Below are positions 21,700-54,711 of a stretch of DNA of 64,000 nucleotides, in pieces. The position numbers and the translations under genes are program-made. The notes beneath the pieces are model-generated. The model ran no database searches. It was not told the origin of the DNA and saw only the letters and a program-made list of their open reading frames with translations. Origin of the DNA: a virus; the IMG/VR virus record IMGVR_UViG_3300029554_000001; one strand, 5' to 3'. Position 1 is the first letter of the stretch, and the number at the start of each line of letters is the position of its first letter.

Positions 21700-21833
21700 A
21701 AATATGAAAAATATTAAATGGAGGAAGTGAAGGCGAATCTACAACATGAGTTGTATATACTTATATTAATTGTTAATTATTGAAGGTAATAATTAAAAAA
21801 TATAAGTTCCTATAATAAAGTAGGGGGTTAATT

Positions 21834-25069: not shown

Positions 25070-25725
25070 GTACTGACAAGTGCAAGAACGATAGTTTGTC
25101 AAATTTAGTTGAACTTATTGATATTGAACCAGAAGGTAATCTTTAGCTTCCAACTCCCTCTCTTCTGCAATATTATTTAGACAGAAAAGAAAGAGTTATT
25201 TGGATTGATAAAGACATTGATGATGATTTGTTTAATGAAATTAGACAAATTATTCAGTATAATAGAGAAGATGAAAAAAATAACATTCCCGTAGAAAACC
25301 GTAAAATTTGTAAAATAATGCTTTAGTCTTATGGAGGAACTTTGGATTCTTGCTTTGCTTTGCTGGATGTAATGAAGATTTCTAAAACTCCTATTTATAC
25401 TTATAATTTAAATGCTTGTATGAGTGCAGCAGCATTAATTTATCTGAATGGACATAAGCGTTTTGCAATGCCAAAATCTACTGTTCTTATTCATGCTGGT
25501 CAGGGAGGTAGCGTTGGTCGGTATGATGCTGTGTTGGCGCAAACAGAAAATTATAAGAGATTAATGGATATGCTTAAAGAAAATGTGCTTGAACATACCA
25601 AAATTGGAAAAGCTTTCTTAAATAAGCAGATGAAGAAAGAATGGTATATTTACATTGATGACCAGATTAAGTATGGAATCACTGATGAAATCATTACTGA
25701 CATTACTCAGATTGTAGGAGAATAA
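25066..25725 (+). CDS. clpP: ClpP-like serine peptidase (S14 family)
   Basis: ATG 25066 is in frame with ORF 25342 through TAG at 25144 and 25324. SYGG, CMSAAALI (Ser), LIHAG (His) and downstream Asp context resemble ClpP. Confidence 0.6.
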
Positions 25726-25727
25726 AA

Positions 25728-27038
25728 ATGGCTTTAGTTACAGATAAAGTACCCGAAGGTTATCTTCGTGAAATGCGTCAATTAATGATGGATATTTCAA
25801 ATGGTGACGCAACTTGGAGTAATGCAAACGATATTCGTAAAAAGTACGGTTTGCCTTCTCTGACTATTGATACAATTCGTAGAGGTGCGCTGCTTTATTC
25901 TGAATTTAATGCTTCAGGATGGGTTAACGAACCTGTTAATAAAAATATTCCTACTAAGAATACTACTACTTTAGATAGGAACGGTGTGAGAACGAGTGAG
26001 AAATTCGTAGCTTTGTCAGAAGATGAGCTTACGGATAAAACTGCTCTTTTAAAAGCACATGGTTATAATCCCGTTCAGTTTGAATTGCTTAATGCTAAGA
26101 ATAGTATTTGGCAACAAGGTGATGGCAAAGGTGGTTTGAAGAATCTTTATTCTTCTCGTATTACTGTAAAGCCTACCGATTGTGGCTTGGATTTAGAAGA
26201 GCTAAGAAAATATTTCGAAGGTTTTAAATCTCCTCGTAAGACAGAACATATTAGAGGAGATATTAGCAACAAACCTAATGTAGTTTTCTTCAGTCATCTT
26301 GATGTACATTTTGGTAGAATTTCTCAGCCTTATGAAACAGGAGTTGAGTATAATATGGAAATTGCAAGATAGAATATGCTTTCTACCACTAAGAAGATGA
26401 TTGATTCTGTTCATTGGAATAATGTGGGAAAGATTATTTATATGGTTGGTAACGATTATCTTAACAGTAGCTTTACTGGTTACACAACAAGTCAATCTCA
26501 CATGCAGGATAACGAAGGAACTTTTAATACTATCTTCAAAAAAGGCACAGAAGCTTTGATTGAAGTTATAGATATGCTTAGTAGAGTGGCGCAAGTAGAA
26601 GTTGTATTTGTTTCTCGGAATCACTCTCGATTTGAAGAATTTGCGTTAATGCAGATAATTGAAGCGTATTATAAAAATGTAGAAGAAATTAAAGTTGATG
26701 CAAGTCCTTTCCCAAGAAAATATATTAGAGTTGGCAAGACTCTTCTTGGTTTGACTCATGGTAGTGATGAAAAAGACCGTATTAATGGTTTGATGCAGAC
26801 CGAAGCTAAAGAAGATTGGGGGCAGACATCTTATCATTATTGGTTGTGTGGTCATTTACATCACAATGATTGGGCTTTAAGAGAAAATTATGGTGTTTCT
26901 ATTTTCATTCTTTCCGCCATGACAAAGATGGATAATTGGACTACAAAGAGTGGATATACTATGGCTGATGCTGGATGCATTGCTTTTGTTTTTGATTATG
27001 ATAAAGGACTTAGTGATATTAAGTTCTATTATGTTTAA
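25728..27038 (+). CDS. calcineurin-like metallophosphoesterase (SbcD/Mre11-like candidate) with N-terminal extension
   Basis: ORFs 25728 and 26376 share a frame, joined by TAG 26370-26372. Motifs LDVHFG, GNDYL, SRNH and GHLHH. Confidence 0.6.
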
Positions 27039-27398: not shown

Positions 27399-27429
27399 CC
27401 CATTCCAAAAAGGTTAAAAGAGGTGAAAG

Positions 27430-27966
27430 ATGAATAAAGGAAAAGCTTTTGAAAAGGATTTTCAAGAAGCGGCTAAGAATGATGAGCTGTTTGTGTTAAG
27501 GTTACATGATACTTCTTTATCTTGGCAGCATGAAAAAACTTCAAGGTTTCAACCTGAGAACCCCTGTGATTTTTTGGTATATGAACTTCCCAATTTATTT
27601 GCTATTGAGTGTAAAAGCACTTGTTATAAATCTTTGACTATACAGAGAGATATAAAAGATAAAGCTTCTAAGATGATTAAAGCTCATTAGATTAACAGTC
27701 TGGTGAAATTTGCTCAATAGGAGGGGGTATTTGCTGGTTTTTTATTTAATTTTAGAGATGATGAAGACATTTCAAATAATGTAACTTACTGGTTATCTAT
27801 ATAGAATTTTAGTAAATTTTTATGTGAAAATGATAAACAATCCATTAATAAATTAGATTGTATTCAATATGGAGCAATTATAATTGAACAAAAAATAAAG
27901 AGAACTCATTATACTTATAATATAAAGAAAATGCTTGAAGATATTAGAAAGGAGGAAATTAAATAA
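27430..27966 (+). CDS. recU: RecU-like Holliday-junction resolvase
   Basis: AAGAGG SD. Frame continues through 3 TAG to TAA 27964-27966. Contains ENPCDFLVYE..LFAIECKST and then HQINSL..Q-TAG-EGVFAGFLFNF (D..E.K nuclease core). Confidence 0.55.
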
Positions 27967-28946
27967 TGTATAATAAAATTTTTGATGAAGAAAAGTGGAA
28001 ACAAGTAAATTAGGAAAATAAAACCATTATGGAAGATTTTCTTCTTGAATACAAAGCGAGAAAAATGAAAGATTCTACTTTGAAATAGTATAAAAATGAT
28101 TGCAGAATTATTCTTTTGTTTGTATTAGATAATTGTGGTAATAGACCCCTCACAGAATTAAGAAAGAAAGATTTTCGTAATTTAAGTTTGTGGTTAAGTG
28201 ATACTTTAGGGGTATCTAATGCTCGTACTAATAGATTGATGTCATGTTGTCGCTCAATGCTTACATATGTTGAAGAAGATGATGATTATGATTATGATAA
28301 TAATTTAGCAGCTAAAGTAAAAGGTCTTCCCAAGGAACATGTAAGAGATATTGTTTTTTTAGATGATAGTGTTATTTTAGAACTTGTTGATAAGTTAATG
28401 GAAAAGAAAGATTACAAGAAAGCTACATTAGTTGCTTTACTTTACGATTGTGGTTCTCGTAAAAATGAAATTGCGCAAGTCGAAAAAGAAAGTTTTTACG
28501 ATGAAAGCAAAAATCTTACTAACAAACTGATTGGAAAGCGTGGCAAAATTTATAGGGCAGTTTATCATTCTTTAACTAAGAAATGCGTCAAGAAATATTT
28601 AGAAGAGCGTGGAGAAGATGATGTAAAAGAACTGTTTATTACAGAGGGTGGTTTCCCTGCAAGGGCAGAGGTACTTTATGATTGGATTATTTCTTTAAGA
28701 CCAATAGTTGAGGAAATTACTGGTAAGCCTTCAAATCTCAACGTTCATACGTTTCGCCATAGCTTTATTCAGAATTTATCGGATGGAACGCATTATTTAT
28801 GTAGGGAATAGAATTTAGGTAAAGTACCTCTTGATAAAATTAAATTATTAGTGAATCATTCTGATATTTCCACTACAGATTCTTATAGAAAAGATACCAG
28901 TCTTGAAGAGATTGGTGAACTGTTTGGAATTGACATGGATGAATAA
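27966..28946 (+). CDS. tyrosine recombinase/integrase (XerC/D-like)
   Basis: ATG overlaps the previous stop (TAATG). ORF 28116 frame with 3 in-frame TAG. Motifs GSRKNE (Arg), HTFRHSF and LVNHSDISTTDSY (His..Tyr). Confidence 0.8.
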
Positions 28947-29796: not shown

Positions 29797-30438
29797 ATGA
29801 GTGATTTATCAAATACAGTTTCAAAAGCATTTGAAGATGCTTGTAAAGAAATTGTAAAGAAAATAGAAAAACAAATGCCTCAAAGAATGGCAACTATTAA
29901 GAATGAAGTTTCTTTTGAATATATGTCTTTAGTCAAAAATGTTTTTGAAAGTGTTTTTGATAATTATTACGGGGACAATTATGATAAAGATAGTTTAATG
30001 GATTCTTTGTTTTTTGTTCCGAGTACAAAAAATTTGTGGCCTGATTTAACTTATAATAAAAACAAATTAAAATTTTTAAAGCCTATAGAAAAAGAAAAGA
30101 AAGCATTTAATAAAAATGCAGTAAGAGAATCTACAATAAAACAATTTGGCGATACAGATTTAGTTTTTGATATGGCTACAACTTTATTTAATGAGGCAGA
30201 ATTCGAAGAGGATTTTGCGGGTTTTGATTCATTATCTTAGTGGGATGAAGTGCAAGAATTAACATTCGATTTTTGGAATATGACAAGAGCAAATAATAAT
30301 AGAAACAATTTAAGTCTTTCTCCTATTGAAGAGACTTATAAAATAGCTTATACACGAAGTCAACGAGAATTTGAAAAGCGTTTTAATAAATAGATTAAAC
30401 CGAAAATGCTACAAAAATATGGTATTAAATTAGGATAA
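29797..30438 (+). CDS. hypothetical protein (tail assembly chaperone candidate by position)
   Basis: ORF 29797 is extended through 2 TAG to TAA 30436-30438. Confidence 0.5.
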
Positions 30439-30452
30439 GGAGGAGATTGAAA

Positions 30453-33400
30453 ATGGCTCAAAATCAATACGAAGTAGAAATAAAGCTTGGCTTGGACAAA
30501 AGTACTTAGCTTTTAGACCGAGAAATTGAGAAAATAGATAAAACACTTACTGATAAAATGAGTAAGTTGAATAAACAATTTGAAGAATCTATCAAAGGAT
30601 AGAATTTAACTGCACAAGAAAGATTCGCAAGAAGGTCAGATTTCTTACAAAAAAACAATAGTTCTACTTAGTCTTTACAGTCACAAAAAGAGACTCTTCT
30701 TAGTAAAAAAGCCCAAATTTCTAAAATGTCTGGTGAAATTTCCAATATTGGAAGTGTAAATAGTCAATTTGACACTATTGGAAAATATTTAGCCGAAAGA
30801 GTTGATTTTATTAAACAATTAGATTCTTGGATTGGGCAATATACTAAACAAATCACAGAATTTAAGCCTGTTATTGTTGCTGCCGAGCAACAAAAAGCCT
30901 ATCAACAAAAAATAAAGAAAGAAAGAGAAAAAGCAGCGAAAACAGGCAAAGTAGACTATAAAGCTGAAACCATGGCAAAAAGGAATTTAACTGAGGAATA
31001 GTATAATAAAGAAATTGATGCCATGAGTAAATATTATGAAGCTAACGCAAAAACTAATTAGGCGGAAGAAGATAAAATTACTCGACAGAAAGAGGCTCGT
31101 TTTGCTGAGGAAATGAAAAGGATTGTAACTTAGCAAAAGAAATCTAAAATGTCGGATACGGAGTTTGAGAAACGCCGTCCACAGATAGAAAAAGATGTCA
31201 AAGCATATGTAGATAAGACTCATGCTGGTGGCATAAAAACTTTAGCTGGTTCTGATAAATGGGGTCGAAAAATAGAAGTTAGAGGCTTCCAAGAAGGTTT
31301 TGTAAAAGATTCAGATGACCACTATGTTGATGCTAAAGGCCGTGTTGTAAAAGGTACTGACACTTCTGTTTTAAGAACTACTGCATTTGCTCCTTTTATT
31401 AATAAAGAAGGTGAGTATGTTTCCGCGACTAATTCTGAAGGGCGGCTTAAAAAGTCTATTAGAGTTTATGACCCACGTTTAGCAAATATAGGAAATGTTG
31501 GACAGGTTGGAGATTTAAGAAACCAAACCTATACAGGAATAGAAAATGCATATAATTCTTTGTTGAATCAGCTTAAGATTTTAGAAAGTGGTGGAAAACA
31601 AGGAACTGAGGAATACCAAAAGATTTCTCAACTAGCTTCTTTGATTCCTGAAGTGATTAAAGATGCTTATGCCAATACTTCTTCCAAGGAAATTAAAGCT
31701 GCTTTTGAAGAAGCTTTAACTGGAATGAAAAGTGGTATTACCTCTCTTGAATCTGAGGAGTCCTCGATTGGAGGAGCTTTATATAAAAATAGTGAACTTA
31801 GCGGTGTTTTAAGAGAGCAATTAAAATTAAAAGGTAAAGTATCTAAGATTCAACGGTGGGAAGTGGGGGAGTTACCTGAAATTCCCACACAAGATAAAAC
31901 TGATAGAACAGATGAAAAGCAAATAAAGAGAGACCAAATTAGTGCTAAACAGCAAGAAGTTATTGACCAAAAACATAAAGATGAACTTTGGCATTCAATA
32001 GAAGGGGCCAAAGAAAGTACTTATGATGATAAGGGAGAGCTTTTACAATAGGGTATAAAAGATTTCTTGGCTGGCTTATCTGGTGACAAAGAATAGTTGC
32101 ACAACGCTGTTTTAGCGCTGGTAGAACAAATAGTTCAAACCGCTGGTGTTGATATTGATGCAAAACAGCAAATGAGCGAGGTTATATCTCAACAATCTAT
32201 TAATGTCCCTATAAAATATAAAGGAGAAGAGCGGAATAGTACGTTAGAAAGTGCAATCACTGGAACTTCAAGTGCTAAATATCAAGCTGTTTTAGAAGAA
32301 CAAAGAAGTAAGATGGCTGGAGGGTTATCTGAAGGATTCCAACGTATTCAATCTGCATTAGCATTTCAACAAACTGGAACAGCAGGGGATGAAGCTGTCA
32401 AGCAAGCAGTTGAGAGAATAAATTGGCTCGCTGATATTGTAAGTGAAATAGGTGGCAATTCTGAGCTAGAAGAAGGACTTCGTAAAATAGCAGAAGGTAA
32501 TCCTCGGTTTACTGGAATGGACGCAAACACTATTGCAAATTCTATTTCTAAAATTTATGCTTTTTCCGAGGGGATGGACGCATCTCTTTCTCATAATTTA
32601 AACAATTTAAACCAAGCGAGATAGGCACAAGGACTTAAACCTATCAAAGAAGAAAAATACAGAGAAAAATTCTTCAAAGAAAATCCTGAAATAGCTCAAA
32701 AATATGAAGAATCTAAAGCTGCAAGAGAACGTTATGATTCAGTCGAATCTGACAAGGTAAGTGACAAATTACAAGCGTTCTTTTCTGTTGTTGGACAAAC
32801 AGAAGAAGGGGTTAATAAGTTTATTACAGTTCTTGCTAAAGCTTACGAGAATTTGAACGGAACTATTTCTAAAGTTGTAAAAACAGATGAGGGAGACCGT
32901 AGAGCTACTGCTTCTGCTCAAAGATGGGTGGAAGATACTGTAGAATATAGAGTGAGTTCTTCTGGCAATGCCATTAACCCAAACAAAGGAGTGAATGCTC
33001 CCTATTATCAAAGAGAGGGTATCAGAGGTTAGGATGTAAACTGGGAAGAAATTACAAGTAATCCTTCTCCTGCTTTAACTACCAATTTGTAGAACAAAGC
33101 TGGTTTAACTGGTAATATTTATGATGGTAACAGTCCCCAAGAAAATGCTGAGATTGCAAAAAGTATTCTTGAACAGAAAAAGAAAGAGCTTGCAAGAGTA
33201 CAAGCTTTAGTTGCTAATCCTAAGAGTGAAGCAAGTAAAAATAAAAATTTAAAACGTATTCAAGAAATTTAGGCTGAAATAGATTTTCATTATAAAAACT
33301 GGGATGAACTTGTTATGGCTCAAACCCCAGTTGTTAGAAAAGGTAAAAAGAATACAGGAAAAGATGATTTTAATGTTCCTGTTGCAACGCCCTTGAATCC

Positions 33401-36400
33401 TGAAGCTGAAAGAATCAAGAATTTAAAAGAAAGTGTAAAACAATCTGGTTTTTCTCAAGGGTCTTCTTTTACTGCTAAAAATTCTGTTAGGCGGACTTTT
33501 GGTGGAACAATTACTGGTATAAAAGGAGAAGGAGCTCGGCAAGTTATTGAAGCTCTTTTAGAAGACGGTAAAACTGTTAAATATACGTTTGATAGTTTAT
33601 TAAAATAGCTTATTACTTACTCAGAACAAGCTGCAACAACAGTTGAGGATGTTTCTGAACAAATTAAAACCAATGTAATTCAAGATTCTCAACAAATAGA
33701 ACAAGCAATTGAATCTACTCCTACTATGGCAAATGAAACGTCTCAAACAGAAAAAGCTTTACAACAAGAAGAGGCGGCTATAACCGATGTTAATACTGCT
33801 TTAGATAAACATGAAACAGAAGTTTTATCTGCGGCAGATGCAGAACAACAAAAGATTTTAGTGTCTCAAGATTTAGTTAAATAGTTAACTAAAGAAGAGG
33901 GCGCTTTAGATAAAGTAAGTGAAAGCGCCAAAGAAGCTGAAATTCAAAAAGGTGTTACATATACATATAAAGATTTGCAATCTTATGATGATGCAACACA
34001 TACTTATACCGATACTAATGGTAATAAGTTAAGAAGTATTACTCAACTTGGTGGAGCTTTAAAGGGCTTTATTCCTTCTGCAACAGCTATTGCTGACGAA
34101 AAAGCTTTTATGGCTGCTATTGCTAACACTCCTAAAGGAGAACAATTAACTGCTGAAAAAATTGGCATGACCGCGCAAGACTTTGCTAAAAAGAAAAATG
34201 CAATTATAAGTAGGGAAAAAGGCAATTTAGAGCATGAGGTTTTTGACCTTTTAAGTAAGACTGGATTTTCTGGAGTTGAAGGTTTTGCTGGAAAAGATGT
34301 TGAGGTAAAATGGAACGGTGCTACAGAGATAGTAGATGCTCAAGAACAATTCGCAAGAGTATTAAAAGAAAAAGCAGACCTTTTATCCAAGCTTGGTATT
34401 GACAATGCTGAACAACTTTTATTACAAGCTGTCGAGAGTTATACTAAAGCAATAAATAACGCTCATATTCAATTAACTCCTTTCTCTGAAACTCCTATGG
34501 CTGCGAGTTTTAGTGGTCCAAAAGGAACTTTTGATTATTCTTTTACACCCGACTAGATTGCAAGGAGTTCTGATGGTTCTCCACAGAATTTTATTCTTGA
34601 TACCAAAACTGGTAAGACTTATGGTACAGAAAGTTTCCAACTTGCAGGACAATTGTACGGTGTTTTAGCTAATGCTCAAAACCCTGAATTCCAAAAATTA
34701 TATCAAGAAAGTGGAATTGACACAGATAAAGATTTTTCACTTTTTATCGCCGATGTTAAAGATGGATTTACTCAATTAATTCAACACATGGCTTTAACTG
34801 AAGAGGAATTTTACGACCTCCTTGTTAGAGCAAATGATATTATAGATGGCAAGGCTGAACCTTTAACTAAAGATGAACAAGCAGCTCTCATGAATAGAGA
34901 GATGACCACAGGTAGAGTTTTTGGTAGGTCAGAATCTCCTGTATCTGAAAAAGCTGCTAATAATAATTTTGTTTCTTACGCTCCTGATGAAAATGGTAGC
35001 ATTGATAAAAGAGAGCAAGCTATTATTGGTAGTTATTTAACTGAGTATCAGAAATTAATAAATTATCAAACCCAATTAAATAATTTAAAGAAGCAACAAG
35101 AAGAATTAGCCCAAAATGGTGTCGGTTATACTAGTGAAGAATCACAAAAACTTGAACAACAAATATCGACCATGCAATCTACAGTTAATCTTCAAAAGAA
35201 GATTATGGCGGAAAAGAATCTTGATTATAAGGTTTTAAACACACCTCGGGAAGCTGACAAAGTTGCAATAGGGAATGTTCTTTTATCTGACAAGGGTAGC
35301 AAACTTGCTACGCTGCAATGGGCTAAAATAAATGCGCTTAGTAGTAATAAGCAGAGAAAAAATGACACCAGTGTTACTACTCAGCAAAATACAGAAGCAA
35401 CAAAGGATTTAGATTTACTTTTAAGTCAATATAAAGAACTTCTAAGTCTTCAAAATTAGTTGAAAGAGTCTAACATTAAAGCTGAAAGTTTAACAGGGGA
35501 CAAGCAAGCCGCTCAACAAAATGCTTCTGCTAATTTGCAAGAAAGAATTGATAAACTTCGTGAAATTTCTACTCTTACTGGTGAAATAACAGATGAGAAG
35601 AGAATTGAAGAAGAAATTACAAAAGCCACTTATTTAACTGAGAGTGAAAGAGCTAAGAAATTAAATACTCTTAGAACTACAGTAGGAGAAGCAAATCAAA
35701 AGAATTTAGACATTGACACTAAATATGCTCAAGCGGCAAGAAATAATAACCCAACTCTTCAAAATACTTTAACTGGTTATTATAGAAACCTTGAAGAACA
35801 AGGTAGAATTGAAAGAGAAATTGCTAGAGCAGAAAATAAAGGAATGTCTTTAACTGGAAATGCGGCTATTGAAAATAAATCCTTTATTCATTCTCTGCAA
35901 AGTTAGAAAAACAATTTAGCAAACCAATATAAATATGACGAGCAAAAGAAAACTTTAAATGGTATTGAATTAACAGAAGAGCAAATTAACAAATTAGAAC
36001 AAGAAAGAACTCGTATCTTAAACAACAACCAAATTGAGATGGATAGAGTTGGAAATTCTGTTAATCAAACTAAAGGCTTTTTAACTCAACTTAAGGATAA
36101 TTTTAAAGATAGCTTTTCTCAAATTGGAATGGCTATAATGCAAATATTTTCTTTCCAGTAGATATAGAAAGTATTTAATGATTTTATTTCTGCTACTGAA
36201 AGACTTGACTAGAAAATGGTTGACCTTCAAATTGCAAGTGGTTATACCAAGAGTAATATTCACGATATGATGCTTGAGTTTAATGACTTGGCAAAAGAAA
36301 TCGGTAAAACTACTGAAGAAATTGCTGAAGCTGCAAACGATTGGCTTCGTGCTGGTTACGAAGGACAAGAAGCATCTCAATTAACTAATGCTTCTATGCA

Positions 36401-39400
36401 ATTAAGTACGCTTGGTATGATTAATAGCGCTGATGCTACGAGTTATCTGATTAGTGTGCTTAAAGGATGGAAGTTAGAAGCAACCGAAATTCAAGGAGTA
36501 GTGGACAAATTAACTGCTGTTGACATGCAGGCCGCTATAAGTGCTGGTGATTTGGCAGAAGCTATGTCTCGTGCTAGTAATTCTGCACAAATGGCTGGTA
36601 CAAGTTTAGATAGATATATTGCGTATCTTACCACTATTACAGATGTAACTCAAAAGAGCGCTGCGTCTGTTGGTGAATCTATGAAAACGGTTTATGCACG
36701 TTATTAGAACATTGCCGCTGGTAAATTTGTAGCTGCTGAGTCTGATATTGAAAGCGAGAATTATAATGCCGATGAATGGGCTAACTTAAATGATGTTGAA
36801 AAAGCTCTTGGTGCGTTGGGTATTAATATTAGAGATTCTGTATCTAGCTTTAGAGACTTTGATGATATTATGGATGAAATTGCTAGCAAGTGGAATACAT
36901 ATACAGACGTTCAAAAATCTGGTATTGCTACTTCTCTGGCTGGTGTGAGACAGCGTGAAAACTTGCTTACCTTGTTTGAAAACTGGGACGCTGTTGAAAA
37001 ATTTGAAGAAATTTCTACTAATGCATATGGCACTGCTATTGAAAAAATGAAGTCTTATACTGATAGTGTTGAAGCTGCCAAGAATAGAGTTACTGTTGCT
37101 CTTGAAAAGTGGGTTTTAGCTCTTAATCAGTCTGATACTTTGATTTGGTTCTATAATGCTGTTGCAGACGTTTCTGATAATCTTGTAGCATGGGCGGGAG
37201 CTATTTTACTAGCAACTGCTGCAATGAACTCTGTTGGTTTTGGAAGTACAATGCAAAATGCATGGTCTAAATTTGTTTCATCTTGTATTAATGTTTCTAT
37301 GAAACTTGATAAAATGAATATTTCAACTCAGGGATATTTTACTCAAGGCGGAAGACAAAGTTTAGGAGAATCTTTAAAAGCAAATTATACTGAATCGTTT
37401 AATGTGGCTCTTAAAGAGAATTACGCAAAAAGCTTAACTAATACTATTAATAGTTTAGATAATTTAACTGATAGTACTAAAAAGATATTGGTTGATGGTT
37501 ATGTTCCAATGCAAAATTCCATGCTTAATTACAATACTAAAATAAAAGAAAATATTGCCAGTATTTTAAAAAACACTGCGCTTACCGACGAGTAGGCGGC
37601 ATTACAGCTACGAGAAAATTTGGCTGACCAAAACAATGCATGGGTAGATGCTATGTTGTCTACTATAGATTAGGAAGAGCTTCGTTTAAGGACTGAACAA
37701 ATCACTCAAGGTCAAAGAAGCTTGACTGATGAAGAAAAGCTTTAGATAGCCACAGAAGAATTGGCAAGAAGACGTAATGATGCGGCAGTCAGAACTGTTG
37801 CAGATGATTTAGAAGGCTCTTCTAGGATAAGTCCTCAAAGAGCGGCTTTAAAAGGTGGCGCAACCATGGTTGGGTCTGGTCTTGGTGCTTTAGCTGGTAT
37901 GGCTATTGGAGAAAATCTTCTTGGTGGTGGTTGGGCAACTTCTTTAGGAACCATGATAGGTATGGGTATTGGTGGAAAAGCTACTTCCACTATGGCTCTT
38001 GCATTTGCTGACGCTATGGCGGCAGGAGGTTCTATTTTTACTGGTATGAAGGCAGGCGCAATGGCTTTAGGTCCTGTTCTCGGTATTGGAGTTGCGGCTT
38101 TAGCTATTGGGGCTGGTTATGCTTTGTATAAAAAGCACCAACAAAAAATGATAGAAGAAGCTAAAACTGCTTTTACAGATGCAGCAGAAGAATTAACTAA
38201 TGCCAAATCTTTACAAGCTACCGCTTAGAAATATGATGAACTTTCTAAGGGTGTTGATTCTTTGGGAAGAAATGTTTCTCTTACTGATGAAGAATACGAA
38301 AAATTCCTTGATTATAGTAATCAATTAGTAGAAGCATTTCCTGAATTACGTATTCGTACAGATGAAAATGGCAACGCTATTGCTGATATGGGTAATGAAA
38401 TGGAAACCACTTCTGATAAGGTTAAGGGGTTAATAGATTCTTTACAAACATTGGCAGATTAGAGAATGGTTATGGGTTCTGATGGTGAAAAAGTATTACA
38501 AGATACTTTAGATACTGCGGCTCAGGAATATAAAGATGCGCTTTCAGATTTGAATAATGCAAGGGCTGACAGGGCTAATAATTATACCGATGTAATGGCT
38601 TTACAACAACAAAGAGACCAAGCACAAGAAGAATTAGACAAAGCCCGTGAAGATTACAATGATGCCGAAATAAAACAGCTTCAAGATGAATTAATCAATG
38701 CACAAAATAAATTGGCTGGATATCAGCAAAGACAAGCAAACGGAGAAAAGAATTTAGGTAGTGTCATAGTTCTTGCGCAAGATAATGTTGATAGAGCTAA
38801 AAGAGCTTATGAAAATAAAGTTGGACATCAAGATATTAATACCCTTGAAAATCAAGTTGCTGACCTTGACGTTAAGATAAAAGAAGCTCAAGCTGAAAAT
38901 AACGCTGGTGAAGCTGCTGTTGATGCAGCTCAAAATGCTTATGATAGAGCTATTATAAGTGCTAAAGAAACATTAAGTGAATCTGGTAAGGCTTATGCAA
39001 GACTTATTGGGGCTTATGAAGATGTTGATGATGTAACCAGCAACTTGTTTGATAATGCTATTGGTTCTATTGATGCTGTTGATAAAGCTGGAAATGCCTT
39101 GTCTCCTGAAATGTATAAGCAAAAAGTTAGAGACATGATTAATTCTGTCAATGGTCTTGTTTCTGATGAAACTGTAAAAACTTTAATTGAAGCAACAGAT
39201 GAAAAAATAAACACTGATATGACTGTTGCAGATGCTAATAAAGCTAGAACACAATTAAAGAAATATCTTGAAGATACTTTCCCGAATATTGAAGATGATG
39301 AAAATTTGATGAAAATTGTGGTTGGAATTGGATTTGAAGTTGTTGATGGTGAAATTGTTGATAAATAGAACATAGCACAACAATTTAAAGACAAGTATGG

Positions 39401-42001
39401 ATTTAGTAAACAACCACGGGGTATTACAGAGGATTATTTTAATTCTCTTACTGTTTCTCAAGGTCAAAAACTGTTTAATTGGATGGGTACAGATGGTTAT
39501 TTCTCTAATGGAGTGAATACAAATCAAAGCATTGTTAATTCTATGTTTTACGCAGATAGAGAAACTCCAACTAAATTAACTGGTGAAAATGGGTTAATTA
39601 ATAAATATCTTGAAGATATGAATGCTATGAATGACCTTGAAGCTAAGATTGATGAAGTTTTTAACGGTGATAAATACGATTTAAAGAACTCTAATCTTAA
39701 CGAACTTTTCGCCGAATTTCCTGAAACTGTTAGGAACAGTTTAAGTCAAGTATAGGAAGCCCTTAATAATGGAGACATTGATAAAAATGGATTAGCTGAT
39801 TAGCTGAGGGCGACTTATGATAATGCTTATTCTACTGTTTTGGACGAAGGTAAAAAGATTGCTGAAACTATGTCTTCACAATATTTTTCTGATTTGGAAT
39901 TACCTGACGGCTATATCAAATCTTGGTCTGAATTAAAAGAAGCTTTTTCTGATGTTTCTAGTATTTTTGACCAACTTGCTGATGCAAGAGAGGAAATGGC
40001 CTCTTCTGGCAGATTAAGTATCGAAACCACTCTTGAACTTCTCTCTACAAATGCTGATTATATTAATGCTTTGGAGATTGAGGGAGAGAATATTGTGCTT
40101 AAAACTGACGCCGAAGAAATAATGAATAAAGTTAGACTTTAGACTATTGCTGTTAGTTTACAAGCACAGATTCAAGAAGATAATTTAAGAGTTGCACAAT
40201 TAAAGAATCAACTTCAAACTTTAATGTTGTCTGGTACTTATATTGAAACTTCTGATGCTTTGGTTGAATCTACCAAGGCTAAAGTTTATGCTTATGATTC
40301 AGAAGGAGAAGCTCTTGCTAATTTAGCTAATCAATATTTAACGGCTGCGAATGCTGCTTCTTTGTTGAATAGAGCCCAAAATGGAGAAACAGTAGATATA
40401 GGCAGTGTAAAAGCTGTTAAAACTATTAAGTACACTCCTACAGATAAGTCGGCTTTGGAAAGTAAGACTATTGATTTATCTGGTAATACTGAAGCTCTGC
40501 AAAAATAGATTGAAGTTACCAAGTCTGAGTTGAAAAGTTTGGTTGGTAGTTTTGACGAAGTTGTTACTACAGATAAAACTGGCAAGGTTACTGGTTATGA
40601 TGTTAAATTTAAGACCCATACTGATAAAGATGGAAATATTCATTATGATGAAGGTAATATTGCTATGCGTGAGCACTTGCTTTATAGTGTTTAGGACATG
40701 CTTGAGTCTGGTAATTTAGCTAAAGCGTTCAAGAAAGGTTATACAAAACCAATAAAGAGTGCTGGCAAAGCTGCGAAAGATACTAAAGATAAAGTTCTTG
40801 ACCTTCTCAAAGCTTATGATTCTTTAATCGACAAAGAATGGGAAGCAATGAAAGTATTTGATGAAAATACTTTAACTCCTACTGGATATACCCAATATTT
40901 TGAAAAGAAGAGAGCAAGTCTTGAAAAATTAGCGGCTTATTATGAAGGTATGATGCAAAATACCAATCTCACAGAAGAAGAGAGATTAGATGCAGAAAAG
41001 AATTATATTGAGAATCAAAAAGCTATTAATAACCTTGATGATGAAGAGGTTGAAGACAAGTATAAGATTCTTGAATTATATGGAGCTTCTATTAATTCTT
41101 TGATTTTGATGAAGCAGCAATTAGTTAAGACTTCTGACACATATGAAGAACTTCTTGAGAATCAGAAAGACCTTAATAATCTGCTTCAAGACGAGATTGA
41201 TTTGCGTAAAGAGGTTTCTGAATGGCAACAGAAGTTAAGTGACCGTGAACTTGATTATGTAAAAGGAAGCGCGTGGAGTAATAGTTCTGCTTATGATGCA
41301 GCTATGAACGCTTCTCTTGCAGAAATTGAAAAGTAGATTGAAGCTACTAAAGCTTCTATTCAATTTAATTTTAGTCAAGCTGTTTATGGTTATATGACTG
41401 AAGGTATGAGTGAAATGGAAGCTCGTGCTCATGTTGCATTTGGTAATAGTGATTATTCCAAGGCATATCGTGAAGCACAGCAAGAATATCTTGATTTAAT
41501 TGACTCTAAGACTGAATATGTTGTTAATAGAACTTCTGCACAAATTGAAGAACTTTCTAATAAGCTACAACTTCTTGAAGATTCCAAACCTCAAGAGTGG
41601 ATTAGAATTTCTGATATTGAAAGCTACTATGCAAGTAGGAGCACTTTATTGCAAAATCAAGTTAGTGTTTATCAGAAGGCGTTGGAAGATGTGTCTGATT
41701 TAACTGATGAACAAATTAAAGACCTTGTTGATGGCTTAAATGAAGCTACGGTTGCTTTACATGAAGCTAAGATAAATGCTTTGGAAGATAAGACCGAGCT
41801 TCAAGAAAAGCAATATGATGCAATTGTTTATAGAATTAATCTTTATAAGGATGAGCTTCAGGATGCTATTGATGCTATTGAAAAGGCTTATGAAGATGAG
41901 ATAAAACCCTTGGAAGATGCCAATAAAGAGCGTCAAAGAGCTATAGAACTTGAAAATCTTCTCTTGGCTAAAAAGAACGCCAATAAAGAGAAGGAGAGAG
42001 T
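30453..42001 (+). CDS. giant tail tape-measure protein, exon 1
   Basis: AAGGAGG SD before ATG 30453. The 18 ORF-track fragments from 30726 to 41394 are all in frame 0 and separated only by TAG (33 in this exon). TP901-type tape-measure core at about 36216-37100 (AANDWLRAGY..DKLTAVDMQAAISAGDLAEAM). Gly/Ala-rich TM/glycine-zipper region at 37761-38228. Long coiled coils. Confidence 0.75.
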
Positions 42002-43394
42002 GAACCAAAATATGCTCTCTATAAAGATGGCTATATAAGTCAAACGCCAGAGATGGCAGAGACTTAGGAAAGACTTAATATGATTTGGTTTTATTTTAGG
42101 GAAAGGAGGAAATATGGGTTTAATTTATCAAGCTTATTTTAAAACTAATGGCAAAAGTTATATTGGATAGACAAGTAGAAATAATTTAGAAGACAGAAAA
42201 AAAGAACATTTACAAGCTTCTAAAGATAAGCCTTATCTTTTTTATAATGCTATCAGAAAATATGGTTGGAACGACATTGAATGGAGTGTTTTAGAAGAAT
42301 GCGATAATGAAGAATTAAATGAGAAAGAAATTTTTTATATAAAGAAATATAACACTTATATAGGATTTGATAATTGCAATGGTTATAATATGACAGAACG
42401 GGGAGATTGTATTAATCATTGCATGTTTGATACTAAAGATAAAATAAACGAATTGTTAGAAGAATATAAAAAATGTGGTAGTGTAAATGAATTAGCTAAA
42501 AAGCATGATTGCGGCTACACTGTCATTTATAATATTTTAACTGGTATTATTTGTTCCGAATTTACTGGTTTCTATTATAACGATAAAACCTTTTTGAAAA
42601 AATATATGAAAAAAGGCTTGAAATATACTAATGAACAAATAGATGAAGTAATTCAAAGAAATAAAAAAGGAGAATCTAATTCTTATATTTCAGAACAAAT
42701 GAATGTTCCTATTAAATGGGTTCAAGATATTTTATCGGGACGAATTATGTCAAAAAGAACTGGAATTAAACATATCACAAGAAATGAAAGACAATTATAT
42801 AATCCTGTAAATTCAAAGCGTTCTAAAGAAGAAGTTTTAAAGATGGTTGAAGATTATTATACAAACAAGCTATCGTCAAAAAAGATTTGTGAGAAATATA
42901 ATATTGTCTCTGCTCGTTTGAACGAAATCCTATCTGGTAAAACATGGAGTGCAATAACTCATTTAACAGAAGAGGATTACAAAGAAGAAAAATTAAAACG
43001 TAATCCTCCTAAAGAAAAAGCGAAAAAGAAATCCCTTTATTTATATACAGATAAGGATATTTTAGACATGGTAAATTTGTATAAGTTAGGTTATTCTAAA
43101 AAAGAGATAGCTGAAAAATATAATACAACAGAAGGATATATTTACAAAATTGTCACTGGACAAAGAAGAAACGATATAACTCATATTAAATAAATCATAT
43201 TAAGAATCCTAAGAGACTGTAATGGTTTTTATAGTAATATAAAGACCTTCGCCATCGTATTGTTGAAATATACAATATAAGATACAGTCCGAACTTACGA
43301 TATAATCTTGAAATAATAATGAAACGTAAGAGATAGGAAGAAACTCCTATCCGCTATTATTTTAATTAATAATAGTCATTAAAGTAACAGAATG
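42002..43394 (+). mobile_element. group I intron D (tape-measure gene) carrying a GIY-YIG ORF
   Basis: 7-bp P1: AGAGAGT (41995-42001) pairs with GCTCTCT (42014-42020), with terminal U.G. Helices GACTGTA/TACAGTC, CTTACG/CGTAAG and GATAGGA/TCCTATC lie 3' of the ORF. Terminal G 43394. Splicing rebuilds GT+G and changes the frame from 0 to 1, giving an in-frame 4,310-aa product. Confidence 0.65.
42114..43193 (+). CDS. intron-encoded GIY-YIG homing endonuclease
   Basis: AAAGGAGG SD. GLIYQAYF..GKSYIG-TAG-T..R...H motif (TAG 42168-42170). Repeated HTH-like modules at the C-terminus. Confidence 0.8.
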
Positions 43395-44778
43395 GTATAG
43401 AAAAGGCCTTGGTTGGGTGTTCGAATCCAACCCAACAAAATTGCGTGAAGCTCAAAAAGACCTTGACGATTTCTATAAACAAGACCGTCTTGATGACCTC
43501 AACAATACGAAAGATGCAGAGCAACAAATTCTCCAAGACCGTATAGATGCTTGGGACAAATATCTTGAGCAACTTGAATGGGATTATAAGGAATATGAAC
43601 GTCTCGAGAATGAACGCATATTGAAAGAGCTTATGAATGCGAACTCCGAAGAAGAGATTCGTGCTCGTATTACAGCGGATATGCAGAAGTTTAATTCTAA
43701 TGTTCAATAGAACTACAAGAATTATACTACGATATTCCAAGACAACTTACTTACGCCTTATCGTCAAGCCAATGAACAATTAGCAGAATTGCGTAGACAA
43801 AGACTTGAATTATTAGACACTTCTGATTTCTATAATAAGAACAATAATCAAAATGGGTATATTAAAGAAGATGACCTGAACACTTATGATTTCTCTGACC
43901 TTGACATGAATACAGACTATGCTGCAAAAATGTTGGCTGCAAGGGATGAAGGAGAATTTAAGAAATGGGCTGCTTACCGTGATGAAAAAGCTCGTAGAAT
44001 GGGCATTACTCTTGATGGTAGTGGTTATGGTTATGATAAAGCTGGTAACAAGTTTAGATATCAAAGTAATGATGAACTTTATCAGCAATGGCTGTCTGGA
44101 CAGGGAAGGACCAATTCTTCTAATAGTACTCCAAATAGAGTTACTTCTTCTTCAAGTAATTCCAGTAGTAGTTCTAGTAGAAATAATTCTGGTAGTAGTT
44201 CAAGTGGGTCTAATAAAAACACTCCTACAATTGTTAAGCCCTCTCTAGGTGGTAGCGCAAGCAGTTCTTCTTGGGGCGGAAGTGACATTGGTACAGCAAT
44301 GCTCAATGCCAAGACTTCTGAGTAGTTCTGGCGTTTGGCAGACCAAAGAACTGCTAAAATTAAGCAAGCGAAAGCTGCTGGACAAGACACAAGTAAATGG
44401 CCTACGAACCAACAATTGTATGACCAGTGGTTGAAGTTGCATCCTAACACTAACAAATCTGGATTTACTGTAACTCCTTATGCTACTGGTATTGAAGAAG
44501 GACCAGTAACTTATACAGGACTTGCGATGTTACATGGTACGCCTTCTAAGCCTGAGTATGTCTTGAATAGTGACCAAGCTTATAATTTGTTACGCAATAT
44601 GGCAACCACGAGACTTCCTGAGATGGAACGCACTGGAACTGACAATAATTGTGGTACACAGTATATTGTTCAAGGTGATGTTGTACTTGAAGGAGTTAAT
44701 GACCCTGCCAAGTTCTGGAGTGGAGTAACTACAGCAATGGGGTCAAGGTGGAATGTAACTCGTAAAACCAGAGGATAA
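43395..44778 (+). CDS. giant tail tape-measure protein, exon 2
   Basis: ORFs 43417, 43789 and 44335 share frame 1, joined by TAG 43708 and 44323. Ser-rich tract, then a tape-measure-type C-terminus (GPVTYTGLAMLHGTPSKPEYVLNSDQ). Stops at TAA. Confidence 0.7.
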
Positions 44779-44860: not shown

Positions 44861-44950
44861 AAGAGCAAGAAAAAAAGGGGTGTGGTGTGGAACAAAAACT
44901 CGCCACACCTCATCCCTTAGACGAAAAAATAACGAAAGGAGTTAAAAGAA

Positions 44951-47900
44951 ATGATATATAAAGCATCTTCGCTAAGTCCAAACTTGAATGAAATAGATAT
45001 TTTATCTACCACTCGGAACCCATTTTAGGCTTAGGTTAACACCCTTGGAACATCTGTAAAAGCTTATTCTATCAATTTTTTGTCGGGAGATGGCGCTACA
45101 ATGATTCTTAATTAGCCTTCTCAAGCACTAGGACAAGAAATTAGGAATAAAGAGTAGCTTTCTTTAAATTTAACCGTGGATTCTTCTGGTAATTTTGTTA
45201 CTTTTAAAGAAGAAGGGAAAAAAGGATTATCAACGACAGCTTAGTGTGAAGAAAATTAGTCTTTTCAAAACGGAAAAGATTATCAATGGAATATTAGGAT
45301 GTATGAAAATCATTCTCCAAGGACAACAGACGAAGACCCAACAACTTTAGTTTGCTCTGGTTTTACCGTTGGTTCTACTACTTCTGTTATTTGGGTGGAT
45401 TTAAGTGGCATTAGTAGCGAAGAAACTAAGAAATTAGTTAAAGACTAGCTTAAATATGATAGATGGATAGAGATATCTGCTTCAAGTAAAAACGATGGCA
45501 TGATGGCTATCACTCTTCCAAACGAAGATAATTTGGCTTATCCTACTACTTGGCCTTATAGAGAACGTAGACAAATTAACTGGGTTTATACAGATTTAGG
45601 TTGGGATAAAGATGTTATAAAAATTGAACTCACTGAATCTTTTACATATAATTATACAAATGGTAAAACATTTACTCTTTATAACGTTTCTGATTAGCAT
45701 ACTTTAAATAATTTTTATGTCGAGCCCAATGATGATATTGAATTAGGCAATTATATTTCGTTAAATAGCGATGATAGTGTAAAAAGGAAAATTATTGGAT
45801 ATGGGCAAGAAACTGGCGAAATTAGATTATAGGAAGGTTTTGTGACCGTTCCTAAAAATGGAGATACTTATAAACTTTGGACAAAAGATTTGACTTCATC
45901 TTCTTCGCAATTTTCGCAAAAAACTTACCACAGTTCTGCCGAGAGAAAAGTAGGTGGAGCTCCTATTACGAATCCAAATTTTAAAATTATGACTTCTTAT
46001 TGGAATAGTGAAGCAGACCATCAAATTTTTGTTCAGCCAAATATAAATATTAAATCAGATACTTTAAACCCTCCTCAAATTGTTTGGGAAAATGGCGTGA
46101 GGTTAAATATAACACAAAAAATTAGTACATTAGGACAATATGTTGCAGGGAAGAAAACTGATATTACTTTTAATAAACTTGATAATACTCAATGGTTGTT
46201 AAAAGGAAATTGCAAAATTGCAACTCAAAGTACAGGTGATATTTAGCAAATAATTGTTCCTCAAACTGATTACACAGTTTATACTGATTTTATGGATTCT
46301 ATTCCAAATGCTGTTTTATATGCTCGACAAGCGCCAACATTAGGGATTAAATATAAAGATTACCGTGAATTGGATTTGGAAAATATACCGTATATAAGTA
46401 TTGACTAGTCTGTTCCTGCTCCATGGAGAGATGTGGCTTTTTTGGGTACATGGGATTCTATAAATAATGTTGAAATTAAATATTATCATTATTATTTATA
46501 TTCGATTGATAATTATAATAACGAAACTTTAATTGCTGAATCTGATGATATTTACGACTCTTCTCTTGAATGGAATTTTAAAGGTTTTGAGACAAACAAC
46601 TTCTATAAAGTTAGAATAACCATTCATGATAAATATGGTAAAGCATATAGTGAAGAAAATACTTTTTATATTGAATATGCAGTTTATAGCTCTGTAGTTC
46701 CTTTGGCTAATTCTTTGATTTGTGATGAACAAGCCATAAAACTTGAAGTAGTTAGTCCTGTTTATGTTATTTCTACAGATAAAGGCACAGAAAAAACAAT
46801 TACTTCGAATGATGTGTATTTAAGTAGTAATTCAAAATATTATTACGCAGACACAACTTCTGGAAGGGTGTTAAATTACACTCAAGTTGCAGATGCAAAC
46901 AACACCCCCATTTAGATTCCAGAGGTGTTTTCTTTTTTTACAAGATTTAGATTTCCATATATAACTTCTGATAACAAGGTTGGTTTCTTTAATAACATTA
47001 CAGGAACTGATTTAAAAACATTAATGGAAATTGCTCATGCAAGTTATACTCAATTTTATTTAAGTTAGGTAGACACTGTTCTTTATAATGAACTTTATTC
47101 TACTTTATATACAAGACAAGACAATCAAGCTCTTGCAGATGCAATTCCACTTTATCCTGACGGAATTTCTATTGTTTTGTATTCAGATGAAACTACTCCT
47201 ATAAAAGACAGTGATGGTAAAATTGTGTATTATACTTTAAGTAGTTATACAATGTCTTCCACTAAAATTGTCGTAGAAGAGAAAATTGATACTCCTGTTA
47301 CATCTTTTGACCATTATGTTTATTATGATAAGGTTACTAAAGATGAAATTGGTTCGTCAACTTCTTTAAATAATGGATAGCTTGATAGACGTTCGATTTA
47401 TCTTTCTATTTTCTCAGATGAAAATTCTGCGGATGAATACAAAAAATTACTTTCATATAATAAAGAAACAGGAGAACTTGTTATTGAAAGTAGTTTAAAG
47501 AGCGATAGTTATAATAATCTTAATTATAAAGCATACACTCTTAAGTCTGCAAATAATTATATTCCACTGCCATCTTCTACATCAGGTGATATATCTCTTG
47601 GCGGAGATGTTTATACTGTAAAAGTTGGAGGATTGGATTTACTTCTTGTTGACGAAAAAAATAAAATAATTCGTAAAAATCCTAATATGCTTAAAATGCA
47701 AGTATTTAAAAATGGTTCAAATGAACCTTTGGCTTGTTTTAATGGGGGCAAATCTACCAGTTATGATATACAAAGCATGTTAAGTAATATGACTGTTCCT
47801 GATAAATTTGGTTTCGCTCTTCAATACAAATATACAGATTCTAACAAAACTACATTAAAATATATGCTTGTAGAAAAATTTAAAGAAGAACCTGATTACA

Positions 47901-50007: not shown

Positions 50008-50016
50008 GGAGGAAAT

Positions 50017-51879: not shown

Positions 51880-51914
51880 AAATTAAAAGACAAAATTAAA
51901 GGAGTACAAAAATA

Positions 51915-52862: not shown

Positions 52863-52917
52863 TTTCTAATCGACAACTAAAAATAATTCAAAATTTTTAA
52901 AAGGAGACATTTAAATA

Positions 52918-53937: not shown

Positions 53938-53946
53938 ATAATTATT

Positions 53947-53984
53947 GGGGGATAGTAAAACTAATTACTATTCCCCTTTATTTT
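53947..53984 (+). terminator. rho-independent terminator
   Basis: GGGGGATAGTA pairs with TACTATTCCCC (one bulge), followed by TTTATTTT. Confidence 0.6.
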
Positions 53985-54014
53985 CCGTTTTAATATTTTA
54001 AGAAAGGAGTGAGG

Positions 54015-54710: not shown

Positions 54711-54711
54711 C

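Follow-up and report, generated by a model that had tools for sequence, protein, structure and literature searches.

An uncultured phage of ~215 kb, in which TAG is decoded as glutamine, has a tail tape measure protein with an internal segment for which structure prediction supports a RecB/Cas4-clade nuclease fold of the PD-(D/E)xK type. The domain (residues ~1176-1500, ~325 residues) is encoded at 33954-34928 on the plus strand of the window, i.e. the whole 64,000-nt stretch of viral DNA analysed here, and an earlier reading of the letters alone (the original prediction) had pointed to its core at 33975-34760. On balance, we favor the view that it is an active RecB/Cas4-like nuclease and an integral module of the tape measure, which would be expelled at infection and cut DNA in the cell.

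Identity of the tape measure gene

The protein that hosts the nuclease-like segment is firmly identified as a phage tail tape measure protein. Its gene (30453-42038, plus strand) comprises 3,861 codons from the first ATG at 30453 and is part of a recoded open reading frame of 3,869 codons (30429-42038), which stays open only when TAG, and no other stop, is recoded; 33 in-frame TAG codons are thus read as glutamine. Both tape measure profiles scored far above their cutoffs (92.2 bits against 28.8 for TIGR01760; 97.7 bits against 33.2, E 1.1e-27, for PF10145), and they define the canonical tape-measure core domain at 36282-36944 (plus strand, residues ~1952-2172). As inspected in translation, the protein is very long and largely helical/coiled-coil with a hydrophobic Gly-rich segment, and there is a tail gene nearby, a tail protein (phrog_1887) being encoded downstream at 50008-51258. 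The Gly/Ala-rich hydrophobic segment, read from the translation at 37854-38126 (plus strand, residues ~2476-2566), is presumed to be the membrane-inserting part of the tape measure, based on general knowledge of such proteins. The gene order (an integrase, two small ORFs, then the tape measure) is kept in a relative, L002. A search at 41800-43800 for a group I intron following the tape-measure gene returned nothing in Rfam.

Within residues 9-2580, the tape-measure core was the only domain recognised by Pfam. Conservation across the N-terminal 1,170 residues is poor (identity 0.05-0.2), the sole exception being a coiled-coil "stalk" that immediately precedes the nuclease domain (33693-33953, plus strand, residues ~1089-1175; identity 0.20-0.31, occupancy 0.88-0.99). 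A search for a second enzymatic domain in the N-terminal half included modelling of a conserved block at residues ~245-480, which gave a pLDDT of 76 and matched no known fold. Likewise, no releasing protease domain was found in the tape measure protein, either by the Pfam scan of residues 9-2580 or by Foldseek analysis of the modelled block. The surroundings of a conserved motif, RMNRQLKTGR, are a candidate site of proteolytic release. As a separate observation, the tape-measure gene is accompanied in the window by genes for a Mre11/SbcD-like exonuclease, a RecU-like resolvase and a tyrosine recombinase. The resolvase, together with an amidase/SH3b lysin, suggests a host from the Firmicutes.

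Reading of the in-frame TAG as glutamine

The peptide quoted in the original prediction is exactly the frame 1 translation of 33975-34760, including one in-frame TAG (34554-34556, plus strand). This codon specifies Gln1376 of the sequence TPDQ and is located inside the active-site hairpin, adjoining the catalytic Asp, D1375. Under the standard code the region would split into two ORFs (33975-34556 and 34653-35459), and no suppressor tRNA was found within the 64,000-nt window. Both observations would suit a true stop codon, with short unrelated ORFs or a decayed gene in which the motifs had arisen by chance. We consider such an artefact barely credible, as recoding of TAG alone yields the 3,869-codon reading frame, and the TAG is flanked by catalytic residues that belong to a single fold predicted with confidence. 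Among ten close relatives the same position is occupied by TAG in seven and by CAA in three, and glutamine is found there in 17 of 18 distant homologues. In one close relative, P0006, the gene call gives a single protein of 3,816 aa, and standard-code relatives encode the same domain unbroken (in L002, within an uninterrupted exon of 2,049 aa). Together with the very strong purifying selection across the TAG, the TAG/CAA alternation and the unbroken standard-code relatives refute both a true stop and a chance motif match. The TAG codons of the tape measure gene are therefore read as glutamine, and the locus provides a clean case of TAG-to-Gln recoding with the recoded codon inside an active-site motif.

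Extent and conserved residues of the nuclease domain

The originally proposed segment corresponds to residues 1183-1444, in good agreement with the estimate given at the time (~1175-1440); it covers the catalytic core, and the full domain is larger, extending over nt 33954-34928. The domain begins ~1,180 residues from the N-terminus of the protein and ends ~2,370 residues from its C-terminus.

The motif pattern on which the original prediction was based proved to be real, above chance and invariant in 20 homologues, except that its final element, given as QL..Y, is QxxxQ in most members. The conserved N-terminal "H.Y ... S.TQ" block (33999-34046, plus strand; H1191-x-Y1193 ... S1203-I-T1205-Q1206) forms a beta-hairpin and the start of the first helix, T1205 being nearly invariant in the 20-sequence alignment. 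It is followed by the helix motif G1265-x-x-x-H1269 (34221-34235, plus strand; both residues invariant, codons checked), which is the counterpart of "GTFLH956" in RecB and whose His is a presumed metal ligand. Next in order is the invariant E1354 of the "FSE" motif (34488-34490, plus strand), which in the model lies ahead of the first core strand and corresponds to E1020 of RecB. The literal "PD" (P1374-D1375; 34548-34553, plus strand), immediately 5' of the TAG codon and given too little weight in the original prediction, opens core strand beta-2, with the Asp invariant and the Pro nearly so. In the model TPD lies between strands 199-205 and 209-213 (numbering of the P0006 segment). The "(D/E)xK" signature D1391-T-K1393 (34599-34607, plus strand), followed by T-G1395, maps to core strand beta-3 (220-227 in the same numbering), with D, K and G invariant. 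Finally, Q1404-L1405 (34638-34643, plus strand), also invariant, starts the helix after beta-3 and is the counterpart of Q1110xxxY in RecB. Overall, nine positions (G1265, H1269, E1354, D1375, D1391, K1393, G1395, Q1404 and L1405) are invariant in 20 homologues at ~30% identity. The order of the motifs is the same as that read in the E. coli RecB sequence (H956, E1020, D1067, D1080, K1082, Q1110).

Since the domain retains all the metal-binding and catalytic residues (H1269, E1354, D1375, D1391, K1393 and Q1404), it is predicted most likely to be an active Mg2+-dependent DNase. This conservation also bears on a possible retention of the fold for a non-catalytic role, such as clamping DNA, plugging the tail, offering a docking surface there, or serving in assembly or length registration. 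Tape measure proteins are primarily structural, and many PD-(D/E)xK domains have taken on functions other than catalysis. On the other hand, none of the catalytic and metal-binding residues varies among the 20 sequences despite their low overall identity, dN/dS within the domain is very low (see below), and a structural function alone would not demand H, E, D, D-x-K and Q together. Hence, we consider a purely non-catalytic role improbable.

Fold prediction and profile searches

The AlphaFold2 model of the domain was of high confidence (pLDDT 92.6, pTM 0.88). In a Foldseek search against PDB, its best matches were the Cas4-family ACE1 (E 7e-5, probability 1.0), AdnA/AdnB, the Cas4 SSO0001 and AddAB. 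The probability was likewise 1.0 for AdnAB and AddAB chains and, in BFVD, for phage PD-(D/E)XK nucleases. Among 21 matches in BFVD at E<1e-3, nearly all of those with a name were PD-(D/E)XK, RecB-family or Cas4-family exonucleases. A control model of another part of the same protein had no Foldseek match below E 0.4. The TM-scores reported by Foldseek were modest (0.3-0.5) due to insertions. The model contains the alpha-beta-beta-beta-alpha-beta core of the PD-(D/E)xK superfamily with PD and DxK on adjacent hairpin strands; by alignment and model alike, the catalytic Asp is at the start of beta-2 and (D/E)xK on beta-3. The accessory motifs of RecB-like enzymes (GxxxH, the upstream Glu and the Q-helix after DxK) follow in the expected order, the Tyr of QxxxY usually being replaced by Gln. 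The structural comparison with Cas4 and AddB nuclease domains suggested in the original prediction thus returned a significant match, with D...DxK present, invariant and on the expected strands of the model. Combined with the TIGR01760 and PF10145 scores of the surrounding protein, these results bear out the central proposal of a PD-(D/E)xK domain within the tape-measure ORF.

The other suggested route, Pfam, gave no match at E<=1 for the window sequence. Among the 20 homologues it detected PDDEXK_1 (PF12705) in a single member (E 0.013) without reaching the gathering threshold. PDB sequence searches with the single sequence, a full-domain profile and a core-only profile returned chance matches only. 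The hhalign comparison of the family with E. coli RecB alone was not significant, nor was that with a three-sequence RecB profile (E. coli, Acinetobacter and Moraxella; E 0.085), in which the G..H motifs were nevertheless in register. None of these sequence-profile methods (Pfam, PDB profiles, hhalign) was therefore significant for PD-(D/E)xK. The top PHROG was phrog_298 ("exonuclease"), a weak hit in six of the 20 members (best E 4.7e-4) that matches the N-terminal H.Y/S.TQ region. A search of phage 80alpha for a stand-alone PD-(D/E)xK seed sequence found none.

The appearance of two Cas4-family enzymes, ACE1 and SSO0001, among the best PDB matches, and the fact that some phages encode Cas4-like proteins, would be in line with a true Cas4 carried on the tape measure and interfering with, or hijacking, CRISPR spacer acquisition. 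However, cysteines are absent from all 20 domain sequences, which means that the defining Fe-S cluster is missing; the PADLOC defence models returned nothing; and the examined window ORFs included no cas genes, the domain residing instead inside a phage tail gene. As no member has a cysteine, the domain is not a Cas4 in the strict sense, and we regard this scenario as very unlikely. Cas4 proper was rejected on the missing four Cys ligands of the Fe-S cluster and the lack of a cas context.

Homologues and selection

An exhaustive HMMER search identified 20 homologues of the domain with a mean column identity of 44%. The distant ones were reached only in this way, a word-indexed protein search, run both with the single sequence and with the alignment, having yielded only five close relatives. 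In 18 of the 20, the domain is internal to a protein of 1,560-3,816 aa. All five full-length homologues that were scanned with Pfam have the tape-measure core downstream of the domain, and one of them uses the standard code. No relative was found by blastn and tblastn among 50,697 phage records, and the domain HMM detected no second copy in the six-frame translation of the window. The dN/dS values were 0.02-0.07 in the nuclease domain, as compared to 0.07-0.54 in the flanking tape-measure segments. The domain has thus been kept across a lineage of large (~215-kb) phages under very strong purifying selection.

Proposed role of the domain

Tape measure proteins are regarded as rulers and as formers of a channel, and the catalytic modules that, to our knowledge, are widely recognised in phage tape measures attack the cell wall only. 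The delivery of the present nuclease into the cell and its target are what we infer for a module of this protein. As a module of the tape measure, the domain would be present in each virion in a few copies, stored in the tail in a probably incompletely folded state. When infection begins, these copies would be ejected via the tail tip and arrive in the envelope or the cytoplasm just ahead of the phage DNA. The domain would then act as an effector borne by the tape measure, cutting or resecting DNA in the cell that has just been infected. The original prediction had spoken of a protein that is injected first; the domain would indeed travel ahead of the DNA, but the wording is imprecise, since in the usual tape-measure orientation the domain is in the head-proximal third and would leave the tail late, just before the DNA. 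As to the target, host or rival DNA is our first guess, and the ends of the phage's own genome are the main alternative.

In this alternative, the domain would bind the leading end of the genome and resect it 5'-3' in the manner of stand-alone phage RecB/Cas4-type exonucleases, leading to circularisation by terminal-repeat annealing, priming of recombination-dependent replication, or shielding from host AddAB/RecBCD. The enzymes closest to it in structure (phage Cas4-family, RecB-like and RecE-like exonucleases, AddAB and AdnAB) process DNA ends, a few copies per virion would fit a stoichiometric role at a single end, the tape measure goes through the channel before the DNA, and the tape-measure gene has the recombination genes named above as neighbors. 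Yet the domain is ~1,180 residues into the protein, away from its head-proximal N-terminus, a partner protein for annealing was not identified, and the results fit exonuclease and endonuclease activity alike. We consider this alternative rather unlikely, albeit the most plausible of those discussed here.

Returning to the favored reading of a nuclease that is expelled with the tape measure and cuts DNA in the cell, the cargo or anti-defence role envisaged in the original prediction may apply. A more tentative proposal is that a lineage of large phages has turned the tape measure into a carrier of an active RecB-type DNase that enters before or with the first base pairs. [quoted passage not shown] The tail-tube lumen is ~4 nm wide. 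As several folded ~37-kDa domains should not fit such a lumen, an unfolded state or another location would be needed, and the cofactor-free, cysteine-free design of the domain may be an adaptation to unfolded storage in the lumen and refolding after ejection. An injected active DNase also requires a means of sparing the phage's own DNA, and none was found.

We found no description in the literature of a nuclease domain of this type in a phage tape measure. If the reading is true, an apparently active DNA nuclease in a tape measure would represent a new class of virion-borne effector, and part of the tape measure would have to reach DNA, which bears on the fate of this protein after ejection. 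Storage of a ~37-kDa enzyme in or near a ~4-nm tube poses a folding and packaging problem; on the practical side, the domain could offer a compact, cofactor-free nuclease together with a possible protein-delivery scaffold.

Comparison with known systems

The domain shares with RecB, AddA, AddB, AdnA, AdnB, Cas4, ACE1 and stand-alone phage exonucleases a common fold (by Foldseek) and the motif order GxxxH, E, (P)D, DxK, Q, and its AlphaFold2 model has the D-hairpin-DxK geometry of the RecB/Cas4 family. However, members of that family are free-standing or fused to helicases, whereas here the domain is placed mid-way in a virion structural protein. Another difference is a large helical insertion that separates the G..H helix from the core. 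The domain also has a mostly QxxxQ motif in place of the QxxxY of RecB and, unlike Cas4 with its Fe-S cluster, has no cysteines and hence no cluster. Its divergence is too great for Pfam, PDB sequence profiles or hhalign to link it to the family.

Embedded muralytic or peptidase motifs are found in the tape measures of T5 (Pb2), mycobacteriophage TM4 and staphylococcal phages. These are alike in having a catalytic module inserted and used at genome delivery; their modules act on peptidoglycan, whereas a nucleic-acid enzyme fold, as predicted here, would imply cytoplasmic or DNA-proximal action.

An enzyme that travels with the injected material and acts before phage expression has parallels in phage polyvalent proteins (Iyer et al. 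2017; PMC5512222) and in nuclease effectors that are joined to structural components of injection machines. The polyvalent proteins combine several effector domains, often with a releasing metallopeptidase, whereas here there is one recognisable enzymatic domain; tape measures and RecB-type domains are unmentioned in the survey of these proteins (PMC5512222).

The nearest precedent for a nuclease on a tape-measure-like protein is Tme, an effector of the contractile injection system of Streptomyces davawensis (PMC11126660). Tme is a very long tape-measure-related protein with coiled coils, transmembrane segments and a nuclease domain, and is thought to be ejected from the tail-like machine (PMC11126660). 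Its nuclease is C-terminal, EndA-like (DRGH/H-N-N) and belongs to a bacterial injection system (PMC11126660), an arrangement not shared by the present protein. In contrast to Tme, the domain described here has a predicted PD-(D/E)xK fold, is internal and N-terminal to the tape-measure core, and is part of a bona fide phage tape measure.

A recoded reading frame places the domain in a tape-measure protein

In the standard code, the area around 33975-34760 is a run of short ORFs, all on the same strand. Reading TAG alone as a sense codon opens a 3,869-codon ORF (30429-42038) with 33 TAGs inside it, along with another ORF of 1,345 codons; no comparable gain in ORF length across the window was obtained by recoding TGA or TAA instead. 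Counted from the first ATG of the longer ORF (30453), the segment 33975-34760 covers residues 1183-1444, and the peptide quoted in the original prediction is its exact frame 1 translation, including one in-frame TAG. This TAG (34554-34556) comes directly after the motif 'TPD', whose Asp is invariant. The codon is TAG in seven and CAA in three of ten close relatives (nine IMG/VR contigs and one from JGI, 123-221 kb), and the aligned residue is Gln in 17 of 18 distant homologues. Over all alignable TAG positions, the residue most often found opposite is Gln (47 of 132; ordinary CAA/CAG codons, 275 of 1,115). A distant relative, the Logan contig L002, carries in the standard code an uninterrupted 2,049-codon reading frame that includes the same nuclease domain. 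The TAG/CAA alternation, the aligned Gln and the uninterrupted frame therefore show that the fusion is not a stop-readthrough artefact: TAG encodes glutamine and the merged protein is real. No suppressor tRNA was found within the 64-kb window. In-frame TAGs across the window are concentrated in structural or late-type genes (33 in 30453-42038, 20 in 44933-48970) and missing from several long ORFs (8584-10548, 19907-20938, the beta-CASP-like gene 21819-23282 and the ATPase-like gene 52915-53937, with none each).

The protein is a tape measure, as had been proposed: PF10145 matches residues ~1952-2172 (E 1.1e-27), TIGR01760 ('phage tail tape measure protein') matches residues ~1918-2217 (92.2 bits, cutoff 28.8), and a tail protein gene (phrog_1887, 50008-51258) lies downstream. 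Its translation is mostly coiled coil, with a Gly/Ala-rich hydrophobic stretch at residues ~2476-2566. In L002, too, a tyrosine recombinase and then two small unknown ORFs precede the tape measure. The N-terminal 1,170 residues are poorly conserved (identity 0.05-0.2), except for a coiled-coil stretch immediately upstream of the nuclease domain. A second conserved block in this extension (residues ~245-480, window ~31161-31868), common to about 11 homologues, carries the motifs 'F.SF..G.FIP', 'RLANP.N.G..G.L.N' and 'A..NT'; its model (pLDDT 76, pTM 0.69) matched no solved structure (best E 0.47).

Conservation of the domain

A word-indexed protein search with the domain (residues ~1176-1500, 33954-34928) returned near-identical fragments only; HMMER, run exhaustively over 1.84 billion cluster representatives, yielded 20 proteins (E 2e-14 to 2e-230) and no free-standing version. 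In 18 of them the domain is internal, starting at ~870-1340 in proteins of 1,560-3,816 residues, and the other two (658 and 174 aa) resemble fragments. The tape-measure core follows the domain in all five full-length members scanned with Pfam. Mean column identity is 44%, with G1265, H1269, G1323, E1354, D1375, D1391, K1393, G1395, Q1404, L1405 and I1440 invariant. A purely structural role is unlikely because this invariance extends to the catalytic set.

Comparison of 318 domain codons with nine close relatives (dS 0.11-0.73, dN 0.004-0.020) gave dN/dS of 0.02-0.07, as against 0.07-0.54 for 1,000-codon flanks of the same gene. The nuclease module is thus the most constrained portion of this half of the tape measure. 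In several relatives flank dN is ~0.6 while the domain stays about 95% identical; there the flanks look to have been replaced by recombination.

Fold and active site

The Pfam check suggested with the original prediction gave nothing for the domain in the window sequence, and PDDEXK_1 appeared, weakly, in only one of the 20 homologues. PDB profile searches with the domain returned chance matches only, and hhalign of the domain family against RecB was not significant. The sole consistent sequence signal came from PHROGs: phrog_298 ('exonuclease') drew more members than any other family, 6 of 20, with a best E of 4.7e-4, and two further 'exonuclease' families appear.

Structure prediction is decisive where these sequence-only methods fail. 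An AlphaFold2 model, built from a 19-sequence alignment with the close relative P0006 as query (95% identical to the window protein), reached a mean pLDDT of 92.6 and pTM of 0.88. In Foldseek against the PDB its top matches were the Cas4-family ACE1 structures (9IAB/9IAC; E 7e-5 to 5e-4, probability 1.0), followed by the AdnA/AdnB nuclease domains, SSO0001 Cas4 and AddAB, and lower down by Rai1/DXO, Card1, Can2 and PfoI, also PD-(D/E)xK enzymes. Against BFVD there were 21 matches with E <1e-3, the named ones nearly all PD-(D/E)XK nucleases, RecB-family or Cas4-family exonucleases. TM-scores were modest (0.3-0.5), which we put down to a helical insertion of ~90 residues and additional elements at the termini. 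A control model of block ~245-480 gave no match below E 0.4. The predicted structure thus upholds the PD-(D/E)xK fold originally proposed.

In the model, 'TPD' stands at a strand start, the hairpin partner strand carries 'LDTKTG', and a helix beginning 'FQL' follows. The modelled PD and (D/E)xK are placed canonically, on beta-2 and beta-3; the D/E..K residues named at the outset are present and invariant. The order and approximate spacing of GxxxH, E, D, DxK and Q are those of RecB from the E. coli K-12 genome ('GTFLH956', 'VE1020ME', 'FID1067L', 'LD1080YK1082', 'LQ1110YQLY'). The domain is RecB-like and not Cas4 proper: Cas4 is defined by an Fe-S cluster, which is lacking here, since none of the 20 domain sequences contains a cysteine.

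Introns and putative invading genes

A group I intron interrupts the tape-measure gene of many relatives at a single conserved position within the PF10145 core. Most homologues break off opposite residues ~2031-2040 of the window protein (the site lies at residue ~2040, nt ~36545). In L002 (8994-10180) the exon stops at 8994, and beyond it come an ORF of 326 aa (DUF7487) and a match to Rfam Intron_gpI (58.9 bits, E 5e-14); the window gene has no break at this site. The window has a group I intron elsewhere (19556-19867, + strand; RF00028, 58.4 bits, E 3e-12), between ORF 18665-19501, with LAGLIDADG-like motifs ('LLFADGC', 'GYFDGDGS'), and ORF 19907-20938 immediately after. The portal gene also appears split, judging by profile matches: ORF 3860-5149 corresponds to profile positions 26-285 of phrog_2739, its N-terminal part, and ORF 6463-7176 to positions 335-498, its C-terminal part. 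ORF 5545-6462 between them and its paralogue 12096-13136 are homologous to the L002 intron ORF (BLASTP E 4e-21 and 2e-24), which suggests that late genes are being invaded by a homing-endonuclease-like gene family.

The window tape measure diverges abruptly from P0006 right after '...KEKERV' (window 42039-44778). A GIY-YIG-like ORF (42084-43193) lies downstream, and most of it (42390-43187) is unaligned with the relative L001 while both flanks align. The next ORF (43366-44778) contains a 'GTPSKPEYVLNSDQ' motif, which we take to resemble tape-measure C-termini; the tape-measure gene may have a further exon downstream. Rfam detected no intron in the stretch scanned (41800-43800).

Neighbouring genes and possible host

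An endolysin (1491-2555; amidase domain and, from reading of the sequence, SH3b-looking repeats), an Mre11/SbcD-like exonuclease (25701-27038), a resolvase (27427-27966; PHROGs 'Holliday junction resolvase', read as RecU-like) and a tyrosine recombinase (27963-28946), directly upstream of tail-chaperone-like ORFs, together suggest a Gram-positive (Firmicutes) host. A borderline 'drum' sRNA match (23350-23446, + strand; 43.6 bits, gathering score 43, E 7e-5) falls in the interval that separates the beta-CASP-like nuclease gene from a GIY-YIG-like ORF. Immediately beyond the tail-tip module, the translations of 51900-64000 read as replication-like ORFs (SSB-like, RecA/AAA-type ATPase, DnaB-like helicase, primase, DHH/RecJ-like), with a DNA polymerase III alpha-like gene split over 59866-61509 and 62183-64000+. 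If so, the tape-measure and tail-tip genes would form an island surrounded by genes for recombination and replication, not a classical morphogenesis cluster.

Proposed function and precedent

The conserved fold, all catalytic residues and the conserved reading frame argue that the domain is probably an active metal-dependent nuclease. Being joined covalently to the tape measure, it would come in a few copies per virion and would exit through the tail tip at infection. Tape measures usually lie with the C-terminus at the tail tip, in which case the domain would leave late, just ahead of the DNA, which these proteins are thought to accompany across the inner membrane. The main alternative, that the domain processes or protects the leading end of the phage's own DNA, is in keeping with its closest relatives being end-resecting. 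We favor an effector role, in which the domain would cut DNA inside the newly infected cell, because even very few nuclease molecules can be decisive and because a Streptomyces injection system has a tape-measure-like protein with a proven endonuclease (PMC11126660). Such a nuclease would require a means of sparing the phage's own DNA, and a domain of ~37 kDa would have to be accommodated in a ~4-nm lumen.

Searches of open-access full text yielded no account of a phage tape measure with a domain of the PD-(D/E)xK, RecB or Cas4 type, and a polyvalent-protein survey mentions neither tape measures nor RecB (PMC5512222). The window ORFs scanned included no recognised sheath gene. The closest precedent, Tme, the tape-measure-related effector of the Streptomyces davawensis contractile injection system, differs in nuclease fold and position and belongs to a non-phage machine (PMC11126660). 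Overall, we rate the domain as joining known kinds: an enzyme embedded in a tape measure or, put differently, a nuclease carried by an injection-machine component.
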